Shown: positions 96 through 62,956 of the stretch, piece after piece
Position numbering within the stretch: the stretch's first letter is position 1
Layout: the number at the start of each line of letters is the position of its first letter
Source of the DNA: an uncultured Gemmatimonadales bacterium
GTDB taxonomy: Bacteria; Gemmatimonadota; Gemmatimonadetes; Gemmatimonadales; Gemmatimonadaceae
NCBI GenBank assembly: GCA_963793305.1
Contig: CAWBZV010000010.1
Span: 128,001 to 192,000 of the forward strand
Length of the DNA: 64,000 nt
Direction of reading: 5' to 3'
Made by a program: the position numbers and the translations under genes
The notes under the pieces: generated by a model
Told to the model about the DNA's origin: nothing
Databases searched by the model: none
The model's input: the letters and a program-made list of their open reading frames with translations, nothing else

Positions 96-1958
96 ATGGC
101 AGCCGGAGGAAACGAGCGACCCCGGTATTCGACACTACTGCCAGTGGCTGCGGCGGTCGCGCTCGGTGCTGGCGGCGCCCTGTGGGTCTCGCCCGCCACG
201 CGATCAATGGCGGTCGAAATCTGGGAGCTCGGCCTCGCCGCCATCGGAGCACCGTTGGTATGGCAGACAGTCCGAGGGCTTTTCGCGCGACGCTTCGCGG
301 CGGATATCGTCGCCTCTTTGTCGATCATTGCGGCGTTGATCTTTCTTCAACCGTTCGCTGGTCTCTTGATCGTGCTGATGCAGAGTGGCGGCGAGGCACT
401 CGAGCAGTTCGCCGCCGGCCGCGCATCGGCGGCCGTCCGCGCACTCGAAGCCGCGGCGCCGAATGTGGCCCACCGATTGATCGGCAATGGCGTCGAGGAC
501 GTGTCCGCCGACGTAGTGGCGGTCGGCGACATGCTGTTGATCCGCCCGGGTGATCTCGTCCCTTGCGACGGACTCGTCGTGCACGGGCGCTCACATGTCG
601 ACACGTCGCGCTTGACCGGGGAACCGATTCCCGTCAGCGCCGAACCAGGCACACGGCTGCTGAGCGGAAGCCTCAACGGCGAGGGCCCGCTTGCGGTGCG
701 CGTGACGGCGCTGGCCCGGGAAAGCCAGTATGCCCGTATCGTCGATCTCGTCCGGTCGGCGCAGGCGAGCAAGGCGCCGCTCCAACGACTCGCGGACCGG
801 TACGCCATCTGGTTCACGCCACTGACGCTCGCCGCGTGCGCGGTGGTCTACGTCCTCACGCATGACGCGATCAGAGTACTCGCCGTCCTGGTCGTCGCGA
901 CGCCGTGTCCGCTCATTCTCGCGGCGCCGGTCGCCATCATCGGCGGCATCAATCGCGCCGCGCAGCGCCAGATCATCGTGCGCCACGGCGGCGCGCTCGA
1001 ACAACTCGCCGGCGTGAACGTGATGGTGTTCGACAAGACGGGCACGTTGACGGTCGGCCAGCCGACCGTGCGTCGGGTGGTGCCCGCGCCAGGCGAGGAT
1101 GAGGCGACGGTACTCGGATTGGCCGCGGGAGTCGAGCGCGGATCGAGTCACCTCCTGGCGCGCACCGTGGTAGAGGCCGCCGAACACCGGGGTCTCGCCG
1201 TCAGGACCGCCGACGATATTGTCGAGGTTCCAGGTCGCGGAGTGACTGGGACGGTGGACGGTCACCGCGTCACAGTCGGATCGCGCGCGTTCGTCGTCGA
1301 GCGCCATCCGGGAACGGCACCCGCCATCGCGACGCTTGACGCCGGGACAAGCGCGCTGCGCGCTTACGTCGTGATCGACGGCCGGGCCGGCGGGATGATC
1401 GAGTTCGCCGATCAGTTGCGGCCCTCCGTTACGAATCTCGTCACTGATTTAGGCCGACTCGGCATCGAGCGCACCATCCTATTGTCTGGTGACCAAGAAC
1501 GGTACACGCAGGATATCGCCTTGGCGTCCGGCATTCGTGAGGCACATGGCGGGCTCCTTCCCGCGGACAAAGAGCGCATCGTGCGCCAACTCGGCCGCGA
1601 CGGCAATCGGGTGCTCATGGTCGGCAATGGGACGAACAATGCCCCGGCGCTCTCCAGCGCCGCGGTCGGCGTAGCGCTTGCCGGCCACGGCGGCGGGATC
1701 GCCGCCGAGGCCGCCGACGTCGTGCTGCTGGTGGATGACGTATCGCGCGTCGTCGACGCCATCCGCATCGGCCGCCACACCGTCCGCATCGCGAAGGAAA
1801 GCATCTGGGCCGGACTCGGCCTCAGCGCGGCGGCCATGGTGTGCGCGGCATTCGGTCTGATCCCGCCAGCAGTGGGCGCTGGGCTGCAAGAAGCGATCAA
1901 TGTCGCGGTGATCGTCAACGCGCTGCGTGCGTCGGTGAAACCCGGATACCACGGCTGA
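96..1958 (+). CDS. Heavy-metal P1B-type ATPase (TPCP / QExxD, P1B-5-like)
   Basis: TGE, ATPCPL and DKTGT motifs are present. The hinge reads GNGTNN instead of GDGxND and the last helix reads QEAIN instead of QEAID (see findings). Start could be TTG 72. Confidence 0.9.
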   Translation: MAAGGNERPRYSTLLPVAAAVALGAGGALWVSPATRSMAVEIWELGLAAIGAPLVWQTVRGLFARRFAADIVASLSIIAALIFLQPFAGLLIVLMQSGGEALEQFAAGRASAAVRALEAAAPNVAHRLIGNGVEDVSADVVAVGDMLLIRPGDLVPCDGLVVHGRSHVDTSRLTGEPIPVSAEPGTRLLSGSLNGEGPLAVRVTALARESQYARIVDLVRSAQASKAPLQRLADRYAIWFTPLTLAACAVVYVLTHDAIRVLAVLVVATPCPLILAAPVAIIGGINRAAQRQIIVRHGGALEQLAGVNVMVFDKTGTLTVGQPTVRRVVPAPGEDEATVLGLAAGVERGSSHLLARTVVEAAEHRGLAVRTADDIVEVPGRGVTGTVDGHRVTVGSRAFVVERHPGTAPAIATLDAGTSALRAYVVIDGRAGGMIEFADQLRPSVTNLVTDLGRLGIERTILLSGDQERYTQDIALASGIREAHGGLLPADKERIVRQLGRDGNRVLMVGNGTNNAPALSSAAVGVALAGHGGGIAAEAADVVLLVDDVSRVVDAIRIGRHTVRIAKESIWAGLGLSAAAMVCAAFGLIPPAVGAGLQEAINVAVIVNALRASVKPGYHG

Positions 1959-1959
1959 C

Positions 1960-2537
1960 TCACACAACGGCGCTGCCGACAGCCTGTCGGGCCATAGCGG
2001 ACAGACGGTAGACGCGGCCACCTCGCGCGGCGAGCGAATGCTCGACGGTTATTTCATCCGGATGCGCGGCCGCCACATGGGCACCAACCGATTCGGCGAA
2101 CGCGAGCACATCGTTCGCGTCCGTCCCCTTTCGGATCGGCACCAGGATATGCATCCCTCGGCTGCCCAACGTCTTGGCGTACGACACCAGGTTGAGCGCG
2201 TCGAGGACTGCCTTGACGTACGATCCCGCGCGAGCGGCGTCGGCAAACTCACCGGACGGTGGATCGATGTCGAAGCATACCCAGTCGGGCTGCCGCGGTG
2301 CGCTCGCCCGGCTCGCCATCACGTGTACCGCAATGCAGCCCATGTTGACCAGCGTCAGCTGCGTGAGCAAGGAACCGCCGACCACGTACTCCGTGAACGC
2401 GCGCGTCTCGGTCTCATGAGCGATCCGCTTGGTCGGCGTATGGCATGGGGGGTGAATGCTTCTTTCAGAAACTGGTACCCAAGGGTATGCCGCCCGGGAT
2501 GCGACACGGCGATCGGCAATTCCCCGGTGTGCTTCAT
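1960..2537 (-). pseudogene. LigD polymerase (primase-like) domain remnant
   Basis: PDWVCFDIDPP, KT(L)GSRGMHILVP and GRVY motifs. The N-terminal piece (IAVSHP) is in another frame, with internal and C-terminal sequence missing. Confidence 0.8.
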
Positions 2538-2544
2538 GCGCCGT

Positions 2545-3171
2545 TCAGCGTATCCAGCTCAGCGTGACAACCGGCTTGCGTGGAGTCGGCGGCGCATCCT
2601 CAGTCGGAACACCGACGATGATCGCCGCGAACGCGTGAATGTCCGCGGGGATGCCAAGCTCCGCTTTTGTTTCCGGCTCATTCAGCGCTTTGAGCGCGAA
2701 TCCAATGCAACACGTGCCCAACCCCTCCGCGCACGCCGCCAGCATCAGGTTCTCGGCCGCCAGCCAGCAGTCCGCGGAGACGAACTCGCCAGTCGGAGTT
2801 GCGCCGATGACGACCAGCGTACCGGCATCATAGAAGATATTGAACGCCGGGTCGCCAAACGGTGAGGCGAGACCGTCACCGGGAGAGCCGGGCTGTTTCA
2901 GCACATTGCCGTGTCGCAATGCCTCCGCGCGGGCCATCCCCTTCGCCCGGTCGGACAGTCGCGCGAGCACCGCGCGATTCTGCACGACAATGAACCGCCA
3001 CGGCTCTTCGTGCATGGCCGTCGGCGCGCGCACCGCAGCATCGAGCAGCGCCCGCAACTGACCCTCGTCAATCGGATCTGTCTTGTACGATCGAACCGAG
3101 CGCCGCCGGTAGATGAGATCGACCAGGTCGCTGTGCGCCTCCGGCTCCCTGACATTCGTATGCATGGTCAT
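2545..3171 (-). CDS. Nitroreductase family protein
   Basis: RRSVRSY, APTAMHEEPWRF and AAENLMLAA..GLGTC motifs. Confidence 0.92.
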   Translation of the reverse strand: MTMHTNVREPEAHSDLVDLIYRRRSVRSYKTDPIDEGQLRALLDAAVRAPTAMHEEPWRFIVVQNRAVLARLSDRAKGMARAEALRHGNVLKQPGSPGDGLASPFGDPAFNIFYDAGTLVVIGATPTGEFVSADCWLAAENLMLAACAEGLGTCCIGFALKALNEPETKAELGIPADIHAFAAIIVGVPTEDAPPTPRKPVVTLSWIR

Positions 3172-3184
3172 TGGTGGCTGGGCC

Positions 3185-3640
3185 TCATACGAGGATGCCG
3201 GACTCTGCGATTCGGACTTCACTCGTAACGCCCCGCACTCCGCCCACGCACTCGAGCGCACGCTCGACCGCGTCATTCGCGCGCGCCGAAGGGACCGTGC
3301 CGCCGAGCGTCACCCAGCCGTCCTCGACCCGGATCGTCACGTGGAGCAGCCCACCCGCGACCGCCGCCGGCAACGCCGCCACGATCGCATGCGCAATCGT
3401 CGTATCACTGAGCGGCCGCGTAGCCTCGCCCACCACGTGCAATCCTTCGGCAATGGCCCGCACGCCATGCACATTGGCAATCGCGCGCTCTACCGCGATC
3501 TTCTGACTGACGGACGGAACGTACCCCGTCAACGTGATCACCCCGTCGGCGATCGTCACGCCGACCGTGCGCTGTGTCGTGCCCAGCTCGCGCTCGAGCG
3601 TGGCGACAACGTCACCATAGATCTCTCGATCCGTTCGCAT
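3185..3640 (-). CDS. BON domain protein (2 BON)
   Basis: Two DG(V/W)xTLxGxV...V.GVRxV repeats. Confidence 0.85.
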   Translation of the reverse strand: MRTDREIYGDVVATLERELGTTQRTVGVTIADGVITLTGYVPSVSQKIAVERAIANVHGVRAIAEGLHVVGEATRPLSDTTIAHAIVAALPAAVAGGLLHVTIRVEDGWVTLGGTVPSARANDAVERALECVGGVRGVTSEVRIAESGILV

Positions 3641-3743
3641 TGTCTGCCTCTCGTGGCTTGATGTGACGACAAGCTAGGCACGAGTCACACGCGCGGGTGT
3701 CGGGCTATCGCTCGACTTCCGTCCGACATTCCCCGACGGGTGG

Positions 3744-4200
3744 CTCCAAGCTTCGCGATACTGTCGACGTCGTGCTGGTCGGATACCTGCGCGGTCGCGG
3801 CAGGCGCGCGGCGCTGGGCATCGGATCACTCCTCGGCGCCGTCTACGATCCGGCGCACGATCGGTTCCGAACGATCGCAAGATCGGGTCGGGACTCTCGG
3901 ACTCCCAATGGAAAGCCCTACGCGCCAAGCTCGACGAGCAGGCCAAGCGGGTCTAGCCGGCACGCGTCGATTCGTCGATCACGCCGGACGTCTGGGTCGA
4001 GCCCACATACGTTGTCGAGGTGCTAGCGGACGAGATCACGCAGTCGCCGTTTCACACGGCGGGCAAGGTCGACGGAAAGCCGGGGTATGCGCTCCGGTTT
4101 CCCCGGGTGCTGTCGCTGCGGACCGACAAGTCGCCGGCCGACGCAACGACCGAGCGAGAGATCGTGAGTCTGTACCGCATGCAACGGCGATCTCGCCCTA
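3744..4200 (+). pseudogene. ATP-dependent DNA ligase C-terminal OB-fold remnant
   Basis: DTVDVVLVGYLRGRGRRA..GIGSLLGAVYD and EITQSP.HTAG..ALRFPR..RTDK motifs. Frameshift near 3878, in-frame TAG at 3954-3956, adenylation domain absent. Confidence 0.85.
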
Positions 4201-4286
4201 ACACTGCCGCGAAGCGGTCACGGTCTCCCACCCGAACCCGAGCACGCGCACAGTGGCCGGGATTCGAATGGGAGATCCTGTCCTGC

Positions 4287-4949
4287 TTAGCCCGTCACCG
4301 TGATCAGATCCTCGACGTCGGTCACGCCGGGCGCCGACCATGCTGCGCGCTCAGCCTCGCGCCGTTCCGGCCACGACGGCACGCTACCGCGCAGCGTGAC
4401 CTTCGGCCCAATCGTCTGCACGACGATCCGGCTCGCGTCGACCTCGGCGTGCCGCTTGAGCGCCGCCTCGATCTCGGTCTTGACCGTTTGCGACGTTGGC
4501 ATACGCGGACTCACCACGATGAGATTCGTGATGCCCCGTAGGCCGACCAGAGTGCGCAGCGAGCGCTCAGCCTCACTACGCTGGTACTCGTGGTCCACTG
4601 TCCCGCCGAGCGTCGCCCATCCCTTCTCGACGGCGACGGTCACTTTCCCCCGAGGCACGAAGCTGTTCCATTCGATCAATGTCGCCGCACCCTCAGCGAG
4701 TCTCGCGTCCGTTCGCTCGTCGGCCTTGGGCAAAGCAATCTCGAGCTCCTGCGCGACCGCGCGCACGCCCTTGACGCGCTCAGCGGCCCTGAGCGCTGCA
4801 TACTTCTCGGCATAACTCGGGACCGTGCCCCGCAAGGTCACCACCCCATCCTTGGCCTTGACCCCGATCCCCTTCTCCGTGACGCTCGGCTCCCAGCCGA
4901 GCTCGGCGAGCACATCGCGTTCCAGATCCGTATCCGTTTTGATCGGCAT
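4287..4949 (-). CDS. BON/OsmY-like protein (3 BON)
   Basis: Three BON repeats ending AAWSAPGVTDVEDLI; AGGAGG upstream. Confidence 0.93.
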   Translation of the reverse strand: MPIKTDTDLERDVLAELGWEPSVTEKGIGVKAKDGVVTLRGTVPSYAEKYAALRAAERVKGVRAVAQELEIALPKADERTDARLAEGAATLIEWNSFVPRGKVTVAVEKGWATLGGTVDHEYQRSEAERSLRTLVGLRGITNLIVVSPRMPTSQTVKTEIEAALKRHAEVDASRIVVQTIGPKVTLRGSVPSWPERREAERAAWSAPGVTDVEDLITVTG

Positions 4950-5064
4950 ATCGCCTCCTATTGTGAGTACTATGGCGATTGCTATTTAGATCAGGCCGCG
5001 GTCAATCGTGTCAGGGGATCCCGGTAATCGTGTGCGGAATTCTCGGACATGGTGCTGACACAGC

Positions 5065-5100
5065 AAGAACCCCCCGCACCGATCGCTCAATGCGGGGGGT
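5065..5100 (-). terminator. Intrinsic terminator-like hairpin
   Basis: Minus strand reads ACCCCCCGCATTGA-GCGA-TCGGTGCGGGGGGT-TCTT: a 14-bp stem with G-U pairs and a GNRA loop. Confidence 0.7.
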
Positions 5101-5323
5101 CCTTCAGCTGGTAGCTGTCGATCGTTCGTTCGGCACCACCGAAATGGTCTGATCGATAGCCGTGACCGTCGTCGAACGGGTTCGCCATCGGCCTTTTTCA
5201 CGACGCTGTGACCAGCGACCTCACAGCCTGCGCACCATTGCCGAACAGCTGATGCGTATGCGCCCATGGTATCCCGTACCAAGAACGCACCACCAATATC
5301 GCCACTTTCGTATGGCACGCCAG

Positions 5324-5338
5324 TCAGGGATTCCCCGA
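5324..5338. promoter_or_regulatory. Palindromic operator TCAGGGATTCCCCGA
   Basis: Near-identical copy at 7112-7126; variant at 5011-5025. Confidence 0.55.
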
Positions 5339-5509
5339 AACACGCAAGCGGTTCTCCCGACAGATAACGCGTCGCGGCATGGTATTCATCATGATGCCGT
5401 GAACCAGGAGTGGAGATGAAGACCGATGCGACCGCTGGGATAGTCACACTTCGCGGGGCAGTACCGAGTTACGGCGAGAAGATTGCTGCGGAACGCGCCG
5501 AGCACTAAC

Positions 5510-6488
5510 ATGCGGCCGCGAATCCTTCTGATCACAACGGCGGTCATCGTGCTTGGGCTCGCGAGTGTCTGCGTGCTCTATGCGCACGACCTCGGACGCG
5601 CGCGTGCGCGCCTTGCCGGCCGTAGTCAGATAGTCGAGACGTCGCTGGGCACCGTGGAGTACGCCGTACTGGGTGCGGGCGAACCGATACTCGCTGTCCA
5701 CGGCGCGAGCGGTGGCTTTGACCAAGGCATCGATCTGACCGGCGCGATGACTGGACACGGCTATCGGATTATCGCTCCCTCCCGTTTCGGCTACCTTCGC
5801 TCGTCGATGCCCGCTGGCGCGACAACCGCCATGCAGGCTGATGCCTACGCCCAACTGCTCGACCACCTCGGCATCGACAAGGTGTTCGTCGTCGGCATTT
5901 CGGCGGGTGCCTGGTCGGCCAGTCAGTTCGCGATCCGATATCCGCAACGGTGCCGGGCGCTTGTGCTCCTCGTTCCCGCGAACTACCTGCCGCCGGGGAT
6001 GTCTATACACGGCGGCGCCATCGCGAGGGCGATCTTGAGCTCCGATTTCGTCGCCTGGGCAGCGCTCAAACTCATGCCGCTTGCGCCAGGTGGGATGACC
6101 CGGAGCCTGCTCGGCACGGACGATGCCCTTGTGCGCTCATCAGAGCCCAGCGAGAGGGCGCGAATTCAGCAAGTGCTCGACCATCTGCTGCCGATAACAC
6201 CGCGCGCCGCGGGGACACAGTTCGAACGTCCGGACAGCCGCCACGCGCGAGCCGTACGCGATCCAACGTATCGTCTGCCCTGTCCTGACGATCAGTGCCG
6301 ATGACGATCAATTTCACACGAACGACCGAGCTCGGTATATCGCGGCCACCGTCCCGGACGGCCGCGATATTGTGTTTCCGACCGGCGGCCATGCGTTGGT
6401 CGGCCACTACACCGACGCCCTGGCTGACGTGATGACTTTTCTCCAGAGAGGTGCGGGGAGCGGCCCGGGCCGCGCGCGCGGCAGCTGA
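5510..6488 (+). CDS. Alpha/beta hydrolase with N-terminal TM/signal; apparent +1 frameshift at ~6225
   Basis: VHGASGG and GISAG nucleophile elbow. Removing one A from TTCGAACGTC restores CPVLTISADDD...TGGHAL to TGA 6486-6488. Confidence 0.85.
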
Positions 6489-6718
6489 CGGGCCTCTAGC
6501 CTTCGACATGATCACCGTCCGAGTCACGCAAGCGGTCCCGCGCCTGAATGGCCTGGCCGTCTTCGCGCTGGGCCTCTAGTTCTGGCCGAGTCGCTGGCCA
6601 AGCACATTGAAACCCTCGCCGGCGCCGCACGATAGCGCGGCCCACAGTGACGGTCCACAGCGGCGTTTTTCGCATCTCATGTCATGAAGCGCTTCGAACA
6701 CGGCCCAAGCACACGATA

Positions 6719-6946
6719 GTGGATCCGTTGACTGTCGCATTTGGAGTAGCCGTGGCCCGTCGGCGGCGCGCGATGGGACTCTCGTGGCGCGGGCTGGGCA
6801 CGCGGTGCCGTGTGAGTGCGAACACCATACGCAACGTGGAGCGAGCCGTTGGATGCAGTCGACTGGATATCGTCGCGCGCGTCGCCGAGGGTCTGGGGAC
6901 GCCCCTGTGGCGACTGATCCGCGAGGCTGAAAAGAGTCACCGGTGA
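6719..6946 (+). CDS. XRE/Cro-family HTH regulator
   Basis: AFGVAVARRR..GLS...TIRNVER...LDIVARVAEGLG pattern; start uncertain (6647 possible). Confidence 0.75.
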   Translation: MDPLTVAFGVAVARRRRAMGLSWRGLGTRCRVSANTIRNVERAVGCSRLDIVARVAEGLGTPLWRLIREAEKSHR

Positions 6947-7111
6947 GGACGACCACGCGATGGGCCGTTGGCTACTCGTCTCTCAGCGCCGCAACGGGAT
7001 CGAGGTTCGCCGCACGTCGCGTGGGTAAGTAACTCGCGACCAATGCCACACACGCCAGGATGGCTCTTGTTCATCCTATTCCATGAACGCGGGAACGTCC
7101 GACACGTAGCG

Positions 7112-7126
7112 TCAGGGACTCCCCGA
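7112..7126. promoter_or_regulatory. Palindromic operator TCAGGGACTCCCCGA
   Basis: About 80 bp upstream of a BON gene; matches 5324-5338 at 14/15. Confidence 0.55.
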
Positions 7127-7205
7127 CACGTTCGCGGCTTCGACCCGACAGACGCCGCGCGGGGCTCGACCGATACTCCTGATGTCAACCGTATCGGAGG
7201 GAGCC

Positions 7206-7676
7206 GTGTCCAATGATCGCAGGCTACACGAACAGGTGCTCGTGGCCATATGCCGTGAGCTCGGTGTCGACATTCAGAGCGTCAGTGCGCGGGTGGAGTC
7301 AGGCGTCGTGTCGCTGAGCGGCATCGTCGATACCCCTGCCGAGCTGGTGGCGGTCGAGCGGGCGGTGTGGGGCGTGTCGGGCATCCGTGGGATGACGCAA
7401 CGCATGCGCGCGCGCCGGACATTCGAAGGTGGCCCGACCAATGCCGAGCTTGTCCTGGCGGTACTGAATACCGTCAAGCGCAACGTGCGCGTCCGCGTCG
7501 AAGACGGCGTCGTGACGCTCATGGGCCCGTTTGCGACCGCGGCCGAGCGCGATGGGGCCGCCGCTGCCGCAGCATCGGTCGCCGGTGTGCGTGGCGTGTC
7601 GGTCGCAGACGACATCGGTACGACGGTATCGCGTCGGCCAACGCTCGTGTCGCGTATTCGCGCGTCGTGGGCGTAG
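7206..7676 (+). CDS. BON domain protein (2 BON)
   Basis: GVVSLSGIV and DGVVTLMG...VAGVRGV; GGAGG before the GTG. Confidence 0.82.
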   Translation: MSNDRRLHEQVLVAICRELGVDIQSVSARVESGVVSLSGIVDTPAELVAVERAVWGVSGIRGMTQRMRARRTFEGGPTNAELVLAVLNTVKRNVRVRVEDGVVTLMGPFATAAERDGAAAAAASVAGVRGVSVADDIGTTVSRRPTLVSRIRASWA

Positions 7677-7707
7677 CGGCAAGGATTGCGCCAGCGTACC
7701 GAATGGC

Positions 7708-8688
7708 ATGCGTATCCTCGTCTACGGCGCCGGCGTGCAGGGCTCGCTGTACGCCGCGCGGCTCCACGAGGCCGGGCACTATGTGACCGTGCTCGCGCGC
7801 GGCGAGCGTCTCGGCGCGCTGCGGGCACAGGGCGTCGTCCTCGAGGAGGCGCTGACCGGGCGGCGCACGCACGCGCGCGTCGACGTGACCGCGTCACTCG
7901 AGCCCGATGACGTATTCGACCTCATCATAGTCGCCGTGCGGCGCGACCAAGTTGACGCCGTGCTCCCAACGATCGCGGCAGCGCGCCGCGTGCCGATGGT
8001 GCTGTTCATGCACAACCACGCCGGCGGCGCCTCGGCGCTGCTCAATGCGGTCGGAGCCGAGCGAGTCGTGCTCGGGTTCCCGGGCGCCGGCGGGGTACGC
8101 GTTGGGTCGGTCGTGCGCTACGTGCTGATCCCACAGCAACCGACGACCATCGGCGAGCCGAGCGGGCGTCGAACGCCCCGGCTCCACACGCTCACGCGAG
8201 CGTTGCGCCGCGCGGGATTTCCCGTCAGAACGGAGTCACGCATGAACGCGTGGCTCAACGCACACGCCGTCTTCGTGACCGCCGTTGCCGGGAGCCTGTA
8301 TCTCGTCGACGGTAACACGGCGACACTGGCCGCAGATCGAGGTGCCATCGCGGGCTTGATCCGAGGCGTGCGCGAGGGGTTCCGGGCGCTGGCCATGAGC
8401 AGGAGCGGGGCGCCACCGATCAATCTGCGCGCGATATTCGCGTGGGCGCCGGAACGGGTCGCGGTATGGTACTGGAGCCGATATTTCTCGCAGCCGATGG
8501 CCGACTATGCGTTCGGCGGTCATGTCAAAGCCGCTGCCGTCGAGATGCAAGCACTCGCTCGGGAGGTGGGCCGCATCCTGCACGGTACCTCGGTGCCAAC
8601 GGCCACGCTGGACGCGTTGTGGGCTGCGATAGAGGTCCGAGCACGCGATGGCGCGATGGCGTCCGAACAGAAGACTGGATGTCGGTAG
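7708..8688 (+). CDS. Ketopantoate reductase (ApbA/PanE)-family oxidoreductase
   Basis: MRILVYGAGVQGSLYA Rossmann start; DLIIVAVR and LGFPGAGG. Confidence 0.88.
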   Translation: MRILVYGAGVQGSLYAARLHEAGHYVTVLARGERLGALRAQGVVLEEALTGRRTHARVDVTASLEPDDVFDLIIVAVRRDQVDAVLPTIAAARRVPMVLFMHNHAGGASALLNAVGAERVVLGFPGAGGVRVGSVVRYVLIPQQPTTIGEPSGRRTPRLHTLTRALRRAGFPVRTESRMNAWLNAHAVFVTAVAGSLYLVDGNTATLAADRGAIAGLIRGVREGFRALAMSRSGAPPINLRAIFAWAPERVAVWYWSRYFSQPMADYAFGGHVKAAAVEMQALAREVGRILHGTSVPTATLDALWAAIEVRARDGAMASEQKTGCR

Positions 8689-51926: not shown

Positions 51927-52211
51927 ATGGCGAAGCAGAAGGCGAAACGGCAGAGGGACGTCGCGGCCCCGAGTCCGTTCGAGGAAGCCCGCGACGAACT
52001 GTTCCAACAGATAATGCAGTGCGGCGTGATCGGCGCGGCCCCTGCGCACCAGGAAGAGTGGTTCCGCGAGACGTTCGCGTACCTCGCGGATCGTTATCAC
52101 GAGCTCTCTCCCACGCAGATCACCGAGCTCCGGACCCTCGGCGAGCGGTTCGTGCAGCCACCGAAGTCCGGGCCTGCGCGTACGCCGTCCGAAAGCGCTT
52201 CGGCAGCTTAG
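51927..52211 (+). CDS. Small hypothetical protein
   Basis: Clean 94-aa ORF after an AT-rich promoter-like stretch. Confidence 0.7.
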   Translation: MAKQKAKRQRDVAAPSPFEEARDELFQQIMQCGVIGAAPAHQEEWFRETFAYLADRYHELSPTQITELRTLGERFVQPPKSGPARTPSESASAA

Positions 52212-53190: not shown

Positions 53191-53257
53191 GATGGCGCAA
53201 GCTATTGCACTCACTCCCTTGTTGCCATGGCGCGAGATCTGGCCTAGCTTGACCCCC

Positions 53258-53731: not shown

Positions 53732-53733
53732 CG

Positions 53734-54402
53734 ATGAGCTCCACACCGCGCGCGACCGTTCGTCATGCGATCATCCCCTGTATCGGCGCGGTGGAGCTGC
53801 TGCCGATCGGCGGCGTTCCGATGATCGAGTGGGTCGTTCGCGAATGCGCCGCCAGCGGCACGAGTGACTTAAGCGTCGTCACGGGAAGGGACCTCGACGC
53901 GATTCGCTCCTTGATCGCGCCGCGCACGGGCTCGCCCGGATTTCCGTTGCGCATCGAGTTCATGCAGGCCGAGACCTTTGGGGACGTGCTGGCGAGAGGT
54001 CGGGAGTTCGCCGGAGAGGCTCCCCTCGGCGTCGCCATGCCGACCCATTTATTTGTCGGCGATGCGCCCGGGCTCGCCCAGGTCGTCGAGGCCTACTATC
54101 GAACGGGGAAGAACGTCGCGGGCGTCGTCGGTAACTTTTCGACCGACGAGGTCGAGCTGGCCCACCTGCTCGACCTCGTCGTCGGCCGGTATCTCCTCGC
54201 ACCAACGGCATGGGACGTCATTGGCGAGGTCCAAGACGAGACGGCCATGGTGCGCTCACTGGTGGAAGCGCATTGCATGATCGGCCGCCGCATGCGTGGG
54301 CAATTCCTCGACGTGACGTTCCCGGAGGGCCGCGCCGACGCGAGCCGCTTCGGCTTGAGGCCGCCGCGCCCATCGACCCCCACGGGTCGCATCGTGGAAT
54401 GA
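53734..54402 (+). CDS. Degenerate GalU-like nucleotidyltransferase-fold protein
   Basis: VRHAIIP..ELLPIGG.PMIEWVV.EC..SG and VGRYLL; GxGTR loop missing. Confidence 0.65.
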   Translation: MSSTPRATVRHAIIPCIGAVELLPIGGVPMIEWVVRECAASGTSDLSVVTGRDLDAIRSLIAPRTGSPGFPLRIEFMQAETFGDVLARGREFAGEAPLGVAMPTHLFVGDAPGLAQVVEAYYRTGKNVAGVVGNFSTDEVELAHLLDLVVGRYLLAPTAWDVIGEVQDETAMVRSLVEAHCMIGRRMRGQFLDVTFPEGRADASRFGLRPPRPSTPTGRIVE

Positions 54403-54435
54403 GCGAGCAGCGCGCGAGGGGATAGCGGGGACAGC

Positions 54436-55998
54436 GTGCCGACCTACATCCCGTCCATTTCGCTCTCGCACGAGTTGCTCGTGCGACTGTACGCCGGCTT
54501 GGCCCTCGGCATCGCGCTGTGGGACATCTTCATCGGCGGCCAGATCGCGCAGTTCCGCCGCTCGCCGCGTGCGCTCGCGGCGCTCTCCGCGGTCTCGGCC
54601 CTCGTCCTCGCGCCGGCGCTGCTCATCGGCGCCGCGGCGGCGTCGACCGCGACCGGGCATACGTTCGAAGGGCTGGCGTGGTTCTGGCCCGCCACGATGC
54701 TGTTGATCACGGCGCAGGCGTGCTACGCGACCGTCCGACGCATGATCTCGCCGTTTGCCGGCCTCCCCATCGTCGCGTACGATCTGCTGCTCACCGCCGT
54801 CGCCATCGTTCGGTGGGTCACCGCGGCTGGGTTCACGCCACCCGAGCCGGCCCTGGCGCTGGCGACGGCGCACGTCAACGTGCTCGGGTACATCGCCGGG
54901 CCGGCGGCGCTCGGCTGGCCATACGCACTGCAACCGGCGCTGCTCGCGCCGGCGTTTCCGCCGCGGTGGCGGTTGAGTCGCACCATGCGGGCGCTGCTGG
55001 CGACGTTTGCCGCGGCATGGTTCACGGCAACTATCCTGGCGCTGCCGAGTGCGTGGCTCACGATTACCAGCTACGACCCGCTGTCTTTGCAACCTCTCCA
55101 GGAACGACCGGCGGGTGATTTCGTCGTTGGCCTGCGGGTTCTCCCAACACTCGAAGCGGCGCCGTCGGCGAGCACCCTCCGGTTCGACTTGTCGTTGGTT
55201 GACACGGTCGGCGCCGAGGCCGTCAGCGTGCGCATCGATCCGCGCGGCGCGCATCCCGCGGCGCTCGACTCGCTCGCTCGAGCGCTGGATCCGTTGCGAC
55301 GCGATACGACCACGTTGATCCTCACGCTCGAATATCCCTCAGACGCGGCCCAGCAATACGCGAAATCGCCGCAGGCGTATCAGGAGGCGCGGCTCGCCGA
55401 ACTGAGTCGCGTCGTCCGCGCGCTGCATCCGGATTACCTCGTCGTGGCGGATGAGCCAATTATCAAAGGCGATAGCGCCCTGGGCTCGCCGCTCTCATTG
55501 GCGACATGGACCCGGTATCTCACGGCCGCGGCGTTCACGGTGCATCGCATCGACCCGAAGGTGCGCGTCGCCGTCGCCGTCTCCCCGTCGGGATCACGCG
55601 ACAGCGCGCTGTACGCATGGGCCGCGACCGCGACGGCCCCCATTGATGCGGTGGGATTTGTCATCAGGCCACTGTTCGCGGGAGCCTCTGACCTCGATGC
55701 GCAGACGCGCAGTGCCGATCGATGGATCGCGGCCTCCGGGCCGACGGCGAAAGAGAACTGGGTGTTCGCCACCTACGGCTATCCCGTGAGCCACGGCGAG
55801 ATCAACCAGGAGCGCGCGATCTGGTCGACCCTCGCGTGGGCCACGAGCCGCTCGGCCATCAAAGGCGTCATCGTCGCCGACGCGGCCGATTACGGCGCGG
55901 TCACCGGCCTCCGCGCGCCATCGGGGCGATTGCGTCGAGCCGCCAACGCCGTGGCGCGCGCCGCCAAGAGCTTGCGCGAGGCCAGCGCGTCGCCATAA
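54436..55998 (+). CDS. Multi-TM protein with C-terminal glycoside-hydrolase-like TIM barrel
   Basis: About 6 hydrophobic helices, then PDYLVVADEP, IDAVGF and KENWVF strands. Confidence 0.65.
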   Translation: MPTYIPSISLSHELLVRLYAGLALGIALWDIFIGGQIAQFRRSPRALAALSAVSALVLAPALLIGAAAASTATGHTFEGLAWFWPATMLLITAQACYATVRRMISPFAGLPIVAYDLLLTAVAIVRWVTAAGFTPPEPALALATAHVNVLGYIAGPAALGWPYALQPALLAPAFPPRWRLSRTMRALLATFAAAWFTATILALPSAWLTITSYDPLSLQPLQERPAGDFVVGLRVLPTLEAAPSASTLRFDLSLVDTVGAEAVSVRIDPRGAHPAALDSLARALDPLRRDTTTLILTLEYPSDAAQQYAKSPQAYQEARLAELSRVVRALHPDYLVVADEPIIKGDSALGSPLSLATWTRYLTAAAFTVHRIDPKVRVAVAVSPSGSRDSALYAWAATATAPIDAVGFVIRPLFAGASDLDAQTRSADRWIAASGPTAKENWVFATYGYPVSHGEINQERAIWSTLAWATSRSAIKGVIVADAADYGAVTGLRAPSGRLRRAANAVARAAKSLREASASP

Positions 55999-56011
55999 AG
56001 TTTCCAGCCCA

Positions 56012-56705
56012 ATGTTCAGCCCAGCCGCATTCAAGTTTCTGCGGGACCTCAAGCGGAACAACCGGCGTGAGTGGTTCGAGGCCCGGCGCAACGTCTACGA
56101 GAACGAGCTGCGCGCGCCATTGCGCGAGCTGCTGGAGGAGCTCGACGCGCGGCTCGGCCGCATCGCGCCGGAGCTCTATGGCGATCCCAAGCGATCGGTC
56201 TTTCGCATTCACCGCGACACGCGCTTCTCGAAGGACAAGTCGCCCTACAAGCACAATGTTGGATTTTGGGTGAACCACCGCGACCTGGGCCGCGGGGCCG
56301 AGCAGATCCATGGTGGAGCGGGATTGTATTTCCATTTCGAGCCCGGTGCATCGATGATCGCCGGCGGCATTCTGGATGCCACCCGCGCCCGCGCTGGCGA
56401 AGATCCGTGAAGCGCTCGCCGAGCATTACAAGAAGTTCGAGACGGCGGTCCGTACGATGCGCCGGCGCTTCACCGCGTTGAGTGAGGAAGCCGTGCTCCA
56501 ACGCCTGCCCCGTGGGTACACCGAGGATCATCCCGCCGCGCGGTGGCTGCGCTACAAGTCGTTTACGTCGCACCGCATGTTGACCGCGGCCGAGCTTCGG
56601 AGTCCGAGACTGCCGGATACGCTGGCGCGCGACTTTACGGCCATCATTCCGTTCGTGCGCTGGCTCAACTCGTCGCTCGGGCTGCCACCGGCTACGCGCC
56701 GCTGA
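56012..56705 (+). CDS. DUF2461 family protein; apparent +1 frameshift at ~56370
   Basis: FL..L..NN.REWF and FRIHRDTRFSKDKSPYK; removing one T gives GGIWMP and joins the 56376-56705 frame. Confidence 0.9.
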
Positions 56706-59296
56706 CCCCTCGTACGATTCCTTCGACGAGGCGAGCGACGTTCGAAATAGCGCTGCGCGAGGGCTTGTATCTCGGCCGGCGTGACGGCCAGCACCCGGGT
56801 CTCGAAATCATCGAGCTCGTCCAAGCCGCGGCCAAATTGCCAGGCATTGATCACGTCGGCGAGCACCGAGGCGCCGCTCTGTTGGCGAATCGCGTGCGCG
56901 CCGATCGTGTACGTCTGCGCCCGCGCTAGCTCGTCGGCCGCAACCGGCGATGCGCGCAGCTTCTCGAATTCGGCCAACAGACCGGCGCGGGCTTCGTGTT
57001 CCTGTGACGGCGACGTGGCGATATAGGCGATGAACATTCCGGCGAGCAAACGCTCCGTCGCGAACGCGTGGACGGTGTACGCCAACGAGCGTTTGTCGCG
57101 CAGCTCATCGAAGAATCGCCCGCCGAGCCCACTGGCCATCGTCGCAACGAGATGGGCCGTGAAGCGATCGGGGTCGTTTCGCGTTGGACCGGGGAACGTG
57201 AGGGCCATTGCCGTCTGCGCCTTGTCCCGCGATTCGACTTCCCGCCGTGGTGCATTGGGCCATATGGGCGGAGCGATGGGAAAGCGCGCGGAGGCATGGA
57301 GCGCGGCCAACTCGCCCGCGGCAACCGCGGCGATCTCGTCCGGGTCGACATCGCCAACGATGCCAATGAGTGTCGGGCCCGCGAGCACGTGCTCCTCGTG
57401 CCACCGAGCAACCGCATCAACGGTCACGGACTGAATCGACTCTTCAGTCCCGAGCGTGCCGACACCATAGGGATGCCCGGCGAACGCGGCCGATGTCGCG
57501 AGTCGCACGGGGTAGCGATACATGTCGTCGCGCAGGGCGGTCAGATCAGCCAGCATCAGCGACCGTTCGGTCTCGAGCGCCGACTCCGGGAACGTCGGCC
57601 GTTGTACGACGTCGGCGACGAGCGCCAAGGCTGCTTCCGTTCCTCGCGTCGGCACCGACAGCGACCAACCGAAATTCTCCGAGCCGACGCTCGCGCTCAC
57701 CGTGCCACCGAGGAACTCGGCGCGAGCGGCGATCTCGGCGGCGGTGCGCGTGGTCGTTCCCTTGGTCGCCGTCCGCGCCATCAGCGTCGTCTCGCCGGCC
57801 CGTTCGCTTGACTCGTTGCGGGCTCCGCCGAATGCGTAGACACCCATGTGCGTCATCGCGGCGCCCGGCTTCCGTCTGACCAGTATCGGCACACCACCTT
57901 GCGTCCGATAGACTCGCACGCCAGCGATTTCCTCTTCGAATGTCGCTGCCGCCCGCGGCGGCGCGACGACGCTGGCCTGTCGGGACGGAGCAGACACCGG
58001 CGCCGGCAACCCCGACTCGAGCGAGTCGAACAGGCCGCCGATTTCCTGGGAGTCGTTCGGTCGATACACGAGCGCGGCCGTCTCGGTCTGCTTGACGTGC
58101 CGCCGGAAGGCGGCCGTCACGTCAGCCGCAGTGGCCGACAGAACACGCGAGAGATACTGCTCGCCGAGCTGCCAGTCACCGAGTGCCTCCCATTCCGCGA
58201 GATGGTTGGCCTGCCCTTCCATCGACTCGGTCCGACGCGCCCACTGCGATTCGAACAGGCGCTGCGCCCGTTCGATCTCGGACGACGTAAAATCGGGCTG
58301 CACCTCGGCCCATACCGCGCGGGCCGCGTCGAGCGTTTTCCCCTGTGGGGTCTCGGCCTGGATCACGAACACGCCGAGGTCCGTGGGCGTGTAATTGTAG
58401 GCCGTGATCGAAGAGGCGAGTTGGCGTTCGCGCACGGCGCGATAGAGACGCGACGCGCGCCCGCCGCCGAGCGCCGCGGCGGCGATGTCGAGCAGCGGCG
58501 TATCAGGGTCGAGTGTACCGCCCGTGCGCCAGCCGAACAGGAGCTGCGCCTGGGCGATGTCCCCGCTCCATTCGCGATAGCGAAGCCCAGCCACAGAGTG
58601 CTCGGCCGGGCCGCGATCTCGCACGATCGGACGGTCCGGGAGCGCGCCGTAGTATCTCTCGACCAGCGCGAGCGTCGCCTCGGGATCGACGTCGCCGACA
58701 ATGCTCAGGATGGTGTTGCCAGGGTAGTAGTACGTGCGATAGAACCCGTGCACATCCTCGCGGGTGAACGTCCGGAGACGATCCGGGTCACCAATGCGCC
58801 AGCGGCGAATGCGATGCTGATCGAAGAGCAGCGCGTAGAGCGACTCCGAGGCCAGCGCCGGCGGATTGTCGGTCTTGCGTCGCACTTCTTGAATGATCAC
58901 CTCGAGCTCCCGGGCGAGCTCACCGGCATCGATCACCGAGTTCGCGTAGGCGTCGGATTGGACGGCGAGGCCTTCGGCGAGACGGCTCGCCGGGAGCACC
59001 GTGTAGTAGCTCGTGTGATCGTAAATGGTGTGCGCATTGAGGTACCCGCCGGAGGCCATGGTCTCCTTGGCGATTTCCCCAACGCCGCGCGTCGGTGTGC
59101 CCTTGAAGTACATGTGCTCCAGCACGTGGGCGATGCCGACCTGCGCGTCGGTCTCGTCGAAGTACCCGGCCTTGACGTACGTCACGACCGCGACGACCGG
59201 CGCGGACCGGTCGCGGCGCACGAGCACCGTGAGACCGTTCGGCAGCACGGTCCGCACGACCGGTGCGCCGAGGACGACGTCGGCTAGCGCGCCCAT
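56692..59296 (-). CDS. M16 zinc metallopeptidase (fused two-half); apparent +1 frameshift at ~56741
   Basis: HVLEHMYFKGT, NAHT and LRDKRSLAY; the corrected end reads YFDVARLVEGIVRGVSGA*. Confidence 0.93.
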
Positions 59297-60030
59297 TCGA
59301 GCCCCCGGATGACGAGCGCTCCGGCCACGAGTGCCAACAGGCCGTATCCGACGCACCAGGCGATCGATCCGGCGATGTCACCCCACTGCGGCGCGCTCGC
59401 CAGCATCCCGTGCAGGAAGGTCTGCTGCGAGAACGGCGGCAGTATGACATGCGCTGTGCGCCAGAGCGCGTGCGCGACCGGGCCAATGGGCGCGTCGGGC
59501 GCGGCCAGCTGGGCGACCGGTATCGATGCCAGGTACAAGATGAGCGAGCCGACCCACGCAAACCGCCAGACGGTCGATTGGCACGCGGTGACCCCGCCCG
59601 CGAATACGTACATGACGGCCGTGTACGCGACCGCGCCGAGCAGGGGCACAGGATGCGCAATCAACGCGCCGAGCAGCGAGATCAGCGCAGCGAGGACCAG
59701 CAGCACGAGACCACGCAGGGCGAACGCTTGGGCGTAGTACCGCACGGGGCCGACCGGCTTTGCGAACAGAAAGCGATAGTAACCCCGCGCGCGGTCCTCC
59801 GACACCAAGCTCAATGTGGCATAGATCGACCCCAGGAGACCGACCAACTGGACGAGCCAGTCGAGCAATGGGGTGTGCGGGGGGCCTGTCCCCGACTCGA
59901 TGACCTGCGTGCGCGAGGCGATCCAGATCTGGAGCAACACGATGCCGATCGTGATGCCGCCCGGCCCAAGGATGAAATCCCGTAGCTGCCAACGAGCATA
60001 GGCGCCCAAACGCGCGCGGACGATCGCCAT
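59284..60030 (-). CDS. ABC-2 type permease
   Basis: 6 TM helices; EDRARGYYRFLFAKPV; coupled to the ATPase gene. Confidence 0.85.
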   Translation of the reverse strand: MAIVRARLGAYARWQLRDFILGPGGITIGIVLLQIWIASRTQVIESGTGPPHTPLLDWLVQLVGLLGSIYATLSLVSEDRARGYYRFLFAKPVGPVRYYAQAFALRGLVLLVLAALISLLGALIAHPVPLLGAVAYTAVMYVFAGGVTACQSTVWRFAWVGSLILYLASIPVAQLAAPDAPIGPVAHALWRTAHVILPPFSQQTFLHGMLASAPQWGDIAGSIAWCVGYGLLALVAGALVIRGLEWAR

Positions 60031-60932
60031 CAGGCGCTCACCTTCTCAACCGCATCGCGGAAATGATACTCGAGGAGCGATTCCGTCGGCGCGACGCTCA
60101 CCAGCTGCGCGCCACCGCGCAGGAGCTCGGCGAGGCCGGCGTTGAGTGTCGTGAGGTCGATCGCGGGCAGCTCGAAGCTCCCCTCGGCGCCGGCCGGGCG
60201 CGCGGCCGGGAACACCGATGGCACGAGCGCCGCGCCCGATGACAACGTGAGCCGGTACTCGCGCGCCTCCGGCGTCGCCGTCGCGCGCGTGTCGACCGAG
60301 CGCACGACCTGGCCGTGGTCAACGATGTACACGCGGTCCGCAAGCTCGGAGAGCTCAGCCAGGTCGTGCGAGGCGATGAGCATCGTCCGGTCCGGTCGCC
60401 TCAGGTCGCGCATGACCGCCCGAAACCTGAGCAGCCATAGGGGATCGAGGCCGTGCGTCGGCTCATCGAGGATCAGCACATCGGGATCACCGAGGAGCGC
60501 CTGGGCGAGCCCGAGGCGCTGCAGGTTGCCCTTGGAGAGGGCGCGGACGACCTTCGTGCTGTGCTCGTCGAGGCCCAGCTGCGAGAGGAGGGCCGGAATC
60601 TGCGTGCGGGCCTCGGCGTTCGGCACGCCGGCCAGGAGCGCGAAGCGCGCGAGCGCCTCGTCGACTCGCCAGCGCGGGTGCATCGCGATCAGCTCCGAGA
60701 GGTAACCGACGCGATAATGCTCGACGTATTGGCGTGGAGAGAGACCGCCGAGGCGGACCGTGCCCGAGGTCGGGTGCAAGTAGCCCAGCAGGAGCGCGAT
60801 CAACGTGCTCTTCCCCGCGCCGTTCGGGCCCGCGATGCCAACCACTTCGCCGCGCTCGGCGCGGAGCGACAGCTTGTCGAGCGCGAGGACTCTGCCCTGG
60901 TATGTCTTTGTGAGGTCGACGCACTCGATCAT
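60030..60932 (-). CDS. ABC transporter ATP-binding protein
   Basis: GPNGAGKST, LSKGNLQR and ILDEPT. Confidence 0.95.
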   Translation of the reverse strand: MIECVDLTKTYQGRVLALDKLSLRAERGEVVGIAGPNGAGKSTLIALLLGYLHPTSGTVRLGGLSPRQYVEHYRVGYLSELIAMHPRWRVDEALARFALLAGVPNAEARTQIPALLSQLGLDEHSTKVVRALSKGNLQRLGLAQALLGDPDVLILDEPTHGLDPLWLLRFRAVMRDLRRPDRTMLIASHDLAELSELADRVYIVDHGQVVRSVDTRATATPEAREYRLTLSSGAALVPSVFPAARPAGAEGSFELPAIDLTTLNAGLAELLRGGAQLVSVAPTESLLEYHFRDAVEKVSA

Positions 60933-61864
60933 TGACACGCGGTCCACGGCCCCTGGCCGGCGCGCGTCAGATACGGCGTGGCCTGTTGCGCTTGGCCCAA
61001 GCGCTTGAGGGTGCAGCCGTAGAAGCCCAGCGCCGAGCGATCGGTGGAGTCGAGGGCGATGGCTCTGAGATAGAATTTGCTCGCCAGCTCGTACTGGCCG
61101 GCGGCCAGCAGCGCCGCGCCCATCTCTCGCTGGGCGATCTCGTTGTTCGGCGCCAGTTGCACGGCTCGTACGAGCTCCGCTCTGGCGGTGCCGAGGTCGC
61201 CGGCCTCGCGCGCGATTCGGCCCAGGTATATGTGCGGGACCGCATCGGCCGTGTCATGCTCGGCGGCATGATTGAAGAACACGCGCGCCGAGTCGACGTG
61301 ACCCGCCTGATACGCGGCTACGCCGCGCGCTACGAGATCGTCGGCCGAATATGACGCGGCCGCTGCGCGCCCCGCGCTTTGCTTGCGCCAGGCGACCACG
61401 CCATAAGCTGCACCACCCGCGATGACTGCCAGTAGCACTACGAAGCCGAGCACGCGACCCACGCCCAGTCCAGTGGAGGGGGTCGCTGTCACAGTCGCCG
61501 CCGGAGGCGGCGCTGTGTTCAGCGGCAACGGCGTAACAGGTGGCGGCGCGGCGGCGAGTTGACTTAGCGCGTCACGCGCGGCGGCAACATCGGCGTCCGT
61601 GACCGCGTAGCCCGACACCACGGCGCGATCGTGCGCCGCGAGCAGCTCAATGAGCGCATGCCCTTGATCGAGCGAGAGCACGTTGCGCTGACGCAGATCG
61701 CGGACGAGCGCTTGACCGACGAGGGTATGATTGCTGGAGGCATTCTGCAGGGCGGACTCGATGGCGGTCCATGCCGCCACCAGCGACGCCGCGTCGCGCG
61801 CGCTGGCCAGCCGTTCAATCGCTGGCCGTGCGCTCTCAATGTCCGCGCCGGCCGGCGCGGTCAC
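60929..61864 (-). CDS. Membrane-anchored TPR protein
   Basis: Central TM helix followed by 3-4 TPRs. Confidence 0.85.
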   Translation of the reverse strand: MTAPAGADIESARPAIERLASARDAASLVAAWTAIESALQNASSNHTLVGQALVRDLRQRNVLSLDQGHALIELLAAHDRAVVSGYAVTDADVAAARDALSQLAAAPPPVTPLPLNTAPPPAATVTATPSTGLGVGRVLGFVVLLAVIAGGAAYGVVAWRKQSAGRAAAASYSADDLVARGVAAYQAGHVDSARVFFNHAAEHDTADAVPHIYLGRIAREAGDLGTARAELVRAVQLAPNNEIAQREMGAALLAAGQYELASKFYLRAIALDSTDRSALGFYGCTLKRLGQAQQATPYLTRAGQGPWTACQ

Positions 61865-62956
61865 TTCACGATACGCAGCAATCCGGCGTCGGCGCTGCCG
61901 CGGATGAAACTCTCGGCATCCGTCGTCGGAATCTCGATGCCGGTCATCGAGAATCCACGGCGCGCCTCGGTCTGCATGAACTCGGCCAGCGGACGTCCCG
62001 CGTACGCGGCGTTGTCATCGCGCATGCCGCGCACGATGTCATCCCACGTGCCGTCGTACTCTTTCCCCTCACGCACGATGCGATGTTTCTGCGCCGCGAG
62101 ATCATTGAGCAGCGCGCCGAACAGCTCCAGCTGCCCGCGCGCTTCGCCCTGCGCCTCGTCGGCCGCGCGCTGCTCGATCTCGGCGAGCATGTCGTCGATG
62201 TCGTCCGACTCGCCGGCCAGCTCCGCCAAGCGATCATCCCACGGCTTGAGCTCGGGATCATCGTCCGCGAGTCTGTACACCGACTTCTTGAGCTCGACGA
62301 GTCGCCAGAATGCCCAGCTCATCCCAGTGATCGTCGGGCGCGGTGCGATCCAGATGATAGAGCGCCGCCTCGTACTCGCCGCGATCGTACAAAATATTGC
62401 CGAGATAGATGCGCGCCTCGGCGTGATCGCCGTCGAGCTGCAACGCGCTTCTCAATGTCGCAATGGCCGCGTCAGTTTCTCCAAGCCGATGCTGGGCATA
62501 GCCCACGCACGCCACGGCCTCGGCGGAGTCTGGGGTTTGCTGAACGGCAATATCAAAAAATTCCTGGGCGGCCTCGATCAATCCCTCGCGGAACAACGCG
62601 CGGCCGGCCTGGAGCATCAGCTCGACATCGTCGCGATAGCCGAGTTCGAGAATGCGGCGAAAATTCTTGAGTGCCGACGCTTGCTGGCCAAATTTGAGGA
62701 GCGTCTCGCCGAGGCCAGCGAGGGCATCCTCGTGCTCCGGATCGAGGACCAGCGCTTCCTCGAAGCTGCGGCGCGCCCACGCGTACTCCTCGCGCGCCAG
62801 TCGTGCGTACCCCACCCCGACATGTAGCTCTACCGCGTTCGGGTAAAGCGAAAGCCCCTCACGGAGCACATCGAGCGCTTCGTCGTATTGCCCCTCGTTA
62901 TAGAGCTGGTGCGCGCGCTCGTCGTACTCCTCGGAGCTCAAAAACGGGTTGGGCAT
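61861..62956 (-). CDS. TPR protein; apparent +1 frameshift at ~62309
   Basis: Multiple TPRs; removing one T gives DELGIWRLVELKK and joins the 61861-62322 frame. Confidence 0.85.

Follow-up and report, generated by a model that had tools for sequence, protein, structure and literature searches.

Assembly errors at GATG in Gemmatimonadaceae genomes track a solitary D12-class methyltransferase gene

In a 64,000-nucleotide stretch of an uncultured Gemmatimonadales bacterium (the window; G000:C10:128001-192000, numbered here from its first letter on the forward strand), several otherwise intact genes are broken by a single extra base, and others encode Asn for Asp or Leu for Ser at conserved positions. 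The question raised by this locus is whether such lesions belong to the organism or to its assembly, and which agent would place them so regularly. An earlier note, made from the letters of the window, had ascribed them to a base modification at CRTC/GAYG and had taken the frameshifts for consensus errors. Here, we report that the lesions fall in two words, GATG and GACGTC, and that across the family the error tracks a gene for a lone D12-class DNA methyltransferase lying elsewhere in the genome. They are probably nanopore miscalls next to N6-methyladenine (m6A) that this orphan enzyme of G000 would place at GATG.

The G000 genome comprises 5.72 Mb in 26 contigs (65% G+C, 92% complete), and homologues of the window's genes carry Gemmatimonadaceae names. 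Its long contigs and the type of error point to a long-read-only assembly, most likely nanopore. Across the window, the congeners G001 and G004 share about 92% identity with G000. Sampled words were present at shares of 0.85, 0.66, and 0.58 in three public runs from two studies, and contigs from these runs (X1, X2, and X3; same species, different sample from G000, library type not on record) were compared with positions 44001-64000. Runs X4-X20 (share <0.2) were left out of this comparison, and the coverage of X21 was too small to count. Since X1 differed from the window by about 1% over 55.3-59.1 kb, it represents a close strain and is not shown to be the source.

At nine sites in this region, three insertions and six substitutions, the X1-X3 contigs sided with the congeners and never with G000. 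The three inserted bases, each of which shifts a reading frame, were absent wherever these contigs covered them. The false extra base at CATCT in a DUF2461 gene (56366-56375; AGATG read as AGAATG; 56371) was missing in G001, X1, and X3, and G004 was also one base shorter there (56372); that at GACGTCG in an M16 peptidase gene (56737-56745; 56742) was missing in G001, G004, X1, X2, and X3; and the false additional A at AGATG in a gene for a tetratricopeptide repeat protein (62305-62314; 62309) was missing in G001, G004, X1, and X2. All six substitutions lay within GACGT[T]G or CAT[T]G, and the X contigs read G or C in their place. One of them, a false T for C at CATCG that turns an M16 Asp into Asn (56848), is C in G001, G004, G005, X1, and X2. 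The remaining five, which the earlier note had not listed, are false A for G: at CGACGTC at 44776 (G in X1, X2, and G001) and 56090 (G in X1, X2, and X3), at CGATG at 61649 (G in X1 and X2) and 63771 (G in X1, X2, and X3), and at CGATGTC at 61838 (G in X1, the sole run covering the site, X2 and X3 being uncovered).

Not every such allele is an error. CATT at 46319, 46412, 47192, and 55644 differs from G001 and is common to the X1 records covering these positions, so these alleles are real. X1 showed 62 differences, and 6 of the 40 listed were of the GACGT[T]G or CAT[T]G kind; in the four X1 records that come closest to identity with the window (14.2 kb; 11 other letters and one gap), the gap belonged to this kind, as did 4 of the 10 letters listed. 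These real alleles, together with the uncertain strain identity of X1, are what favors true mutation, be it deamination of 5-methylcytosine (5mC), editing, or strain-specific decay. Against it stands the agreement of contigs from two studies with the congeners at all nine sites, and deamination inserts no bases, a point the earlier note had made and which we uphold; true mutation is therefore scarcely credible. We consider it almost certain that the oddity of the window's sequence is a consensus artefact in the assembly and not in the organism, and the frameshifts and the Asp-to-Asn (D>N) and Ser-to-Leu (S>L) changes resemble, as had been proposed, the errors that modified bases in native DNA produce in nanopore consensus.

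Beyond the window, G000 was compared with G001 over 820 kb of aligned sequence (from 1,011 kb of the ~5.4-Mb G001). Clean single-base insertions occurred at CRT[T]C in 41 of 67 cases versus 1 of 20 in the reverse direction, an enrichment far beyond chance. Non-synonymous G>A changes outnumbered their reverse by 97 to 11 at GATG and by 55 to 3 at GACGTC, and D>N and S>L changes outnumbered theirs by 102 to 12 and by 30 to 0. The miscalled base is the G lying 5′ of A, and C>T is its complement. While all four GATGN contexts were affected (2.6-8.1%), substitution needed a preceding C (CGATG, 88 versus 7; AGATG, 3 versus 1; TGATG, 3 versus 0; GGATG, 3 versus 3), and AGATG yielded insertions (18 of 1,299 sites). 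GACGTC was affected at 15-23%, symmetrically, and other GACG at close to zero: the non-synonymous counts were 49 versus 1 for CGACGTC and 9 versus 17 for other CGACGNN (summed rows), and insertions were found at 17 of 1,096 GACGTC versus 1 of 15,422 other GACG sites. CRTC as a single motif was thus rejected at the level of the error, as CGTC is hit solely inside GACGTC; a few per cent of GATG sites and almost no GACG outside GACGTC carry the error.

Whole-genome ratios agreed with the aligned sample. GACGTTG/GACGTCG was 0.945 in G000 and 0.33-0.46 in five congeners, and ACATTG/ACATCG was 0.36-0.42 in G000 and 0.14-0.19 in four many-contig congeners. Scaled from the 820 kb, the expected load of G000, where GATG occurs about once per 88 bp, is some 1,700 plus 700 (about 2,400) erroneous substitutions and 260 erroneous frameshift insertions. 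Several other motifs were considered and dropped. A CpG-type 5mC mark was rejected, since GACGTCT and the AGATG insertions need no CG and a C5 enzyme was found in 0 of 5 affected genomes. A weak ATT[C] signal, which would suggest GANTC or GAATC, was gone in the non-synonymous and context tables. GATC showed no excess between G000 and G001 (288 versus 314), and among about 4,000-28,000 contexts per class no other transversion or gapped motif rose above background.

Contig orientation is arbitrary, and a difference between contig strands is therefore computational, not biological. We counted ACATTG and ACATCG per strand in 231 genomes of the family. In some assemblies CAATGT was about twice as common on the contig forward strand, with a mirror loss of CGATGT: the forward/reverse counts of ACATTG were 616/1436 in G003, 776/1391 in G131, 260/601 in G086, 424/839 in G154, 618/947 in G235, and 267/464 in G070, and all six showed the mirror deficit in ACATCG. 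With coding strand and codon position as strata, a reference-free scan ranked C[G>A]ATG first in G003 (z 10.4, odds 2.3, 534 kb of coding DNA) and in G086 (z 6.0, 275 kb), and nothing above z ~4 in the many-contig G001 (742 kb). That biology cannot follow contig orientation speaks further against true mutation.

The earlier note had seen no responsible enzyme in the window, and none lies there; a candidate was located elsewhere, and the error tracks it across genera. This gene, encoding a D12 methyltransferase, was present in 77 of the 231 genomes and in 28 of 77 genera (the tally includes the unpublished carriers G012, G062, and G161 and the unpublished G063) and in 0 of 24 genomes of two sister families. 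Among 65 genomes with at most 50 contigs (none unpublished; four without a contig number were left out), 8 of the 14 with the gene and 1 of the 51 lacking it reached an orientation z of at least 3 (Fisher p 5e-6); for z of at least 5 the figures were 6 of 14 and 1 of 51. Affected genomes, G000 included, belong to seven genera. None of the many-contig genomes, judged by eye, came near a twofold orientation bias, and many-contig carriers of the gene showed no excess, which again is not what real mutation would predict. The one non-carrier above threshold, G234, is 76% complete; within its genus the gene occurs in 4 of 5 genomes, and just the far 840 bases of the 4.1-kb D12 locus were found in G234, 3.5 kb from a contig start.

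The D12 gene lies at G000:C4:116395-117483 on the minus strand and encodes a 362-aa alpha-class protein (PF02086), with motif I near the N terminus and DPPY later; motif I (DAFAG) and DPPY were invariant in 8 of 8 aligned D12 proteins. Its best PADLOC matches were to type II methyltransferase profiles: a single-domain one of 343 positions (E 4e-67) and, at E 3e-64, the first half of one with two domains and 646 positions, the length of which suggests the FokI family. The single-domain profile and a Campylobacterota-rich Atlas neighbour cluster are reminiscent of the CATG enzymes NlaIII and HpyI. A predicted model (predicted local distance difference test score, 72) had E. coli Dam as its top eight structural matches, all weak (best E 8e-4, template modeling score 0.34); by sequence, the protein matched no solved structure, and a plasmid search with it gave no named specificity among the 40 records listed of 88.

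The gene has an LpxR-family gene upstream and, downstream, genes for an extracytoplasmic function (ECF) sigma factor and a 146-aa probable anti-sigma protein; the sigma gene followed directly in 10 of 22 loci inspected with 1.5-kb flanks (one from the unpublished G012). No nuclease was seen beside the gene in the locus and its neighbours, and a FokI- or MhoVII-type restriction locus was not found there, the protein being a single 362-aa domain with no partner in its locus. With no adjacent nuclease and a fixed place kept across the lineage, the protein shows two features of an orphan methyltransferase. An 11-base box with CATC between the D12 and ECF sigma genes (minus strand) was kept in four genomes of the genus and not in three other genera; it is a possible, weak candidate for a self-regulation site. 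The LpxR-family gene just upstream (near G000:C4:118090) is itself frameshifted by an additional A at CGACGTC, and G004 is without the extra base.

Dam, CcrM, and CamA are conserved orphan methyltransferases, and the D12 protein resembles them in being solitary, vertically kept in a fixed neighbourhood, and without an adjacent nuclease. It differs in that its word would be a frequent, asymmetric one of four bases, of which one domain would mark one strand only. The N-terminal domain of M.FokI (GGATG) and the CATG enzymes M.NlaIII and M.HpyI share the alpha-class order, the first-half two-domain and single-domain profile matches, respectively, and an ATG core; they are parts of restriction systems, GGATG is the least-error context here, and the kinship is suggested by unnamed profiles. 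GATG/CATC methylation is called almost unknown in the report on MhoVII, a restriction system of Mycoplasma hominis in which it was first validated in 2026 (PMC12898733). MhoVII shares with our system the GATG/CATC word, a D12-type domain, and m6A, but is described as a fused beta and D12 pair with a nuclease, the D12 half marking CATC, whereas here a lone D12 protein stands beside an ECF sigma factor; the likeness is one of description and not of compared sequences. The one methylome found for the same phylum, that of Gemmatirosa kalamazoonensis KBS708, has m6A at RGATCY, ATGCAC, and CCAGN7TCA, with no GATG (PMC3974934). No Gemmatimonadota row was found in the Blow 2016 supplementary tables examined, and the main text of the Nanomotif preprint gives neither GATG nor Gemmatimonadota. 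A literature search, with subscription papers and REBASE outside its scope, yielded no report of a GATG motif in Gemmatimonadota or of an orientation test made from assemblies alone.

In the mechanism we propose, the D12 enzyme, inherited through many Gemmatimonadaceae genera just upstream of an ECF sigma factor, would put m6A on GATG. In reads of the GATG-carrying strand, the G beside the methylated A would be called A (after C) or GA (after A), and at a few per cent of sites the miscall would persist in the consensus as a D>N change, an S>L change, or a frameshift. A one-strand mark would bring the two strands near a tie, which a polisher may break by orientation. The palindrome GACGTC is miscalled likewise, at a higher rate and from either end, for which the simplest account would be that the same enzyme accepts it on both strands. 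Errors of this type have precedent, as three studies of R10 data describe G>A or C>T calls at a subset of motif sites, linked to the read strand with disturbed signal near methylated words, surviving into assemblies and absent from non-native data (Liu 2024, PMC11610603; bioRxiv 10.64898/2026.01.14.699587; Lohde 2024, bioRxiv 10.1101/2023.09.15.556300). The errors of G000 share with these their confinement to motifs, their single direction, G>A or C>T, and, as far as contigs X1-X3 show, their absence from other data of the species. The literature also has C2T calls at CATCTC, a related m6A word, and a RACG/CGTY pattern (bioRxiv 10.64898/2026.01.14.699587; bioRxiv 10.1101/2023.09.15.556300). 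Here, by contrast, the errors were read from finished assemblies through congeners and contig-orientation asymmetry, they include gene-breaking insertions of A, and they extend family-wide in uncultured bacteria. The type of artefact is known; what it exposes is a probable family-wide methylation motif.

A number of observations weigh against this attribution. The orientation effect is weak in G000 itself, where the excess against G001 was 108 versus 48 and z was 2.9 by counts and 0.8 when stratified; both GATG orientations are hit there. (Raw strand asymmetry in G000 was discarded as a test, drowned by gene-orientation bias, and the small effects of the stratified scan at CGACG, CGATC, and CGAAC, with odds of 1.1-1.2, were read as general bias.) The association uses contig number as a stand-in for platform, and the genera compared are not independent of one another. 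Five few-contig carriers, G016, G072, G129, G144, and G227, show no asymmetry, and may not be nanopore-only assemblies. G164, 76% complete and with no D12 match, has ACATTG/ACATCG ratios of 0.45-0.49 on both strands versus 0.11-0.12 in a congener with many contigs; it may be a second exception. Strong GACGTC errors are confined to G000, G034, and G131, where both GATG orientations are raised (excess ratios 0.67 in G034 and 0.63 in G131, versus 0.21-0.45 in congeners; the G131 signal is from whole-genome counts alone). Finally, GGATG and TGATG show little error, so that the word could be MGATG or HGATG.

The D12 enzyme could also be the cause while acting at a broader site or on the opposite strand (C-m6A-TC, or CATG besides GATG), only G-before-A contexts leaving a trace. 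Such a site finds support in M2.MhoVII, a D12-type domain that methylates CATC and not GATG, which likewise counts against a GATG mark and cautions against fixing the methylated strand (PMC12898733); the resemblance of the single-domain profile and of the Campylobacterota-rich neighbours to CATG enzymes leans the same way. On the other side, R10 errors in the literature take the form of G>A calls on the disturbed read strand (PMC11610603), the protein matches the first half of the 646-position profile, GGATG being the word read by the N-terminal half of M.FokI (PMC3985630), and changes inside CATG showed no excess between G000 and G001. We regard a wider or opposite-strand site as unlikely, though deserving of serious attention.

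Type IIG-like enzymes methylate one strand of asymmetric sites, and IIG and IIL sites are usually 5-7 bp long. A 1042-aa gamma-class, IIG-like methyltransferase is encoded at G000 C4:75605-78733, and it could have placed the modification by itself or on the site's opposite strand. Its motifs DPACGSG and NPPW are intact, G003 has a full-length intact orthologue (62%), and the enzyme is widespread in the family (5,382 relatives among 8,000 candidates, those named being Gemmatimonadaceae), all of which also tells against D12 as the sole cause; the putative CATC enzymes of REBASE are said to be solitary gamma-group proteins (PMC12898733). Yet all four GATGN contexts are affected, in contrast to the usual length of IIG/IIL sites, and the D12 gene by itself is enough to tell the affected genomes from the others. 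We consider the gamma-class enzyme an improbable source, somewhat more so than a displaced D12 site.

The palindromic word invites another division of labor, in which the D12 enzyme is responsible for GATG while in G000 the marking of GACGTC falls to a separate palindromic enzyme. This could be, for instance, the beta-class DPPY enzyme (C2:48212-49066) or the C5 methylase of a BREX (bacteriophage exclusion)-like island. The symmetry of the GACGTC error, its frequency, and the near-absence of error at other GACG would suit this, as would G003, which has strong GATG error, neither the beta-class gene nor, in its reference-free sample, a GACGTC excess. However, G034 and G131 have the GACGTC excess with no beta-class enzyme (the gene was not found in G034 or G003) and no C5 enzyme of any kind, and a small GACGTC excess in the same orientation emerges when six further affected genomes are pooled (2,545 versus 2,887, z 3.2). 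The affected genomes have no other small methyltransferase in common: PF01555 had no match in G154 and G235, and the PF01555-type enzymes of G003 and G034 are type III and that of G131 is unrelated. Since G000, G034, and G131 share the D12 gene and no other small methylase, one D12 enzyme with a second target is simplest; a pair of enzymes is possible but doubtful, about on a par with a wider D12 site. Both words coming from one enzyme would rescue GAYG at the enzyme level. Basecaller differences likely explain why GACGTC strength varies among genomes; one nanopore-only collection mixed basecaller versions and sampling rates (PMC12313526), from which we claim no origin for any genome here.

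A non-methyl modification at G (phosphorothioate or 7-deazaguanine) would account for the miscalled base being G itself, and G000 is 92% complete. DndC was absent from G000, G003, and G034, so that a Dnd phosphorothioate system was not found, and G000 has no S[GFY]GKDS protein. It has one gene of the tRNA-guanine transglycosylase family, a single PF01702 match of full-length tRNA type; the scan did not use dedicated Ssp or DpdA profiles. As the error tracks a methyltransferase, a non-methyl mark is very improbable. The search for modification genes that the earlier note had called for thus turned up D12, beta-class, gamma/IIG-like, C5, and PglX-like genes. The last two belong to the island mentioned above (G000:C3:726000-752000), which also has a PglZ-like gene and whose gene names are in part tentative; the PglX-like gene is split into overlapping frames (730283-732607 and 732588-733778), which may be another artefact. 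Two more reading frames with methyltransferase-like motifs (NPPW, DPPF), at G000:C3:50043-51239 and C12:60613-61818, are probably RNA methyltransferases.

All 13 sites listed by the earlier note have the letters it described, and the sites outside the same-species region stand on differing comparisons. At 26001-26009, the false extra base at GACGTCG (26005), which shifts a gene for an S-adenosylmethionine-dependent methyltransferase (Pfam), is missing in G001. At 36673, where G001 has C, a T replaces the C of GACATCG and gives D>N in an M19 peptidase read from the minus strand. The T for C at CATCG at 34708 (aminotransferase S>L) is also C in G001, where the adjacent base differs too. Positions 1-8200, with genes for an ATPase, a LigD fragment, a hydrolase, and a BON protein, have no close counterpart in three congeners and are probably an acquired island. 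Three false A for G at CGATG in its P-type ATPase, at 1626 (CGATG read as CAATG; D>N in the GDGxND motif), 1638 (D>N), and 1899 (D>N), are called false from the 71%-identical G005 homologue, which has G. Context, with no aligned homologue, marks as probable the false A for G at CGACGTC at 2168 (LigD primase-polymerase S>L) and at CGATG at 7440 (BON protein D>N), and the false additional A at CGACGTC at 6222-6230 (alpha/beta hydrolase frameshift), after which reading resumes in the next frame. Between 12554 and 19687 (no strand assigned), further candidate GACGTC or CGATG miscalls, e.g., at 12554, 12866, 13954, 16036, 19648, and 19687, differ from G001, the one genome compared there.

The counts across the family held two patterns of their own. 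A control word, GCTGCAG, was about 5-10 times rarer in G192 (78/99) and G206 (51/57) than in their congeners (~500-800 per strand), hinting at avoidance or loss of CTGCAG. In G189, GACGTCG was very rare (106/83) and ACATTG almost as common as ACATCG, a pattern of composition or of another motif effect.

For users of these genomes, the G000 reference carries the false substitutions and frameshifts in the numbers estimated above, and since the same mark appears in no fewer than nine further few-contig assemblies from the family, pseudogene, D>N, and S>L calls there are untrustworthy. The forward-versus-reverse k-mer test offers a cheap route to methylation words in deposited assemblies. On a tentative reading that goes further, about one third of Gemmatimonadaceae may share a lineage-conserved orphan methyltransferase that marks one strand of GATG, with GACGTC as a two-strand side target, and that is co-transcribed with an ECF sigma/anti-sigma pair in a regulatory or strand-marking role and not in restriction; orientation bias in deposited nanopore assemblies might then suffice, in place of raw signal, to read such methylomes and match them to their enzymes. 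A solitary GATG enzyme kept across 28 genera of this abundant, mostly uncultured soil family would, if true, be a new conserved epigenetic writer beside Dam and CcrM.

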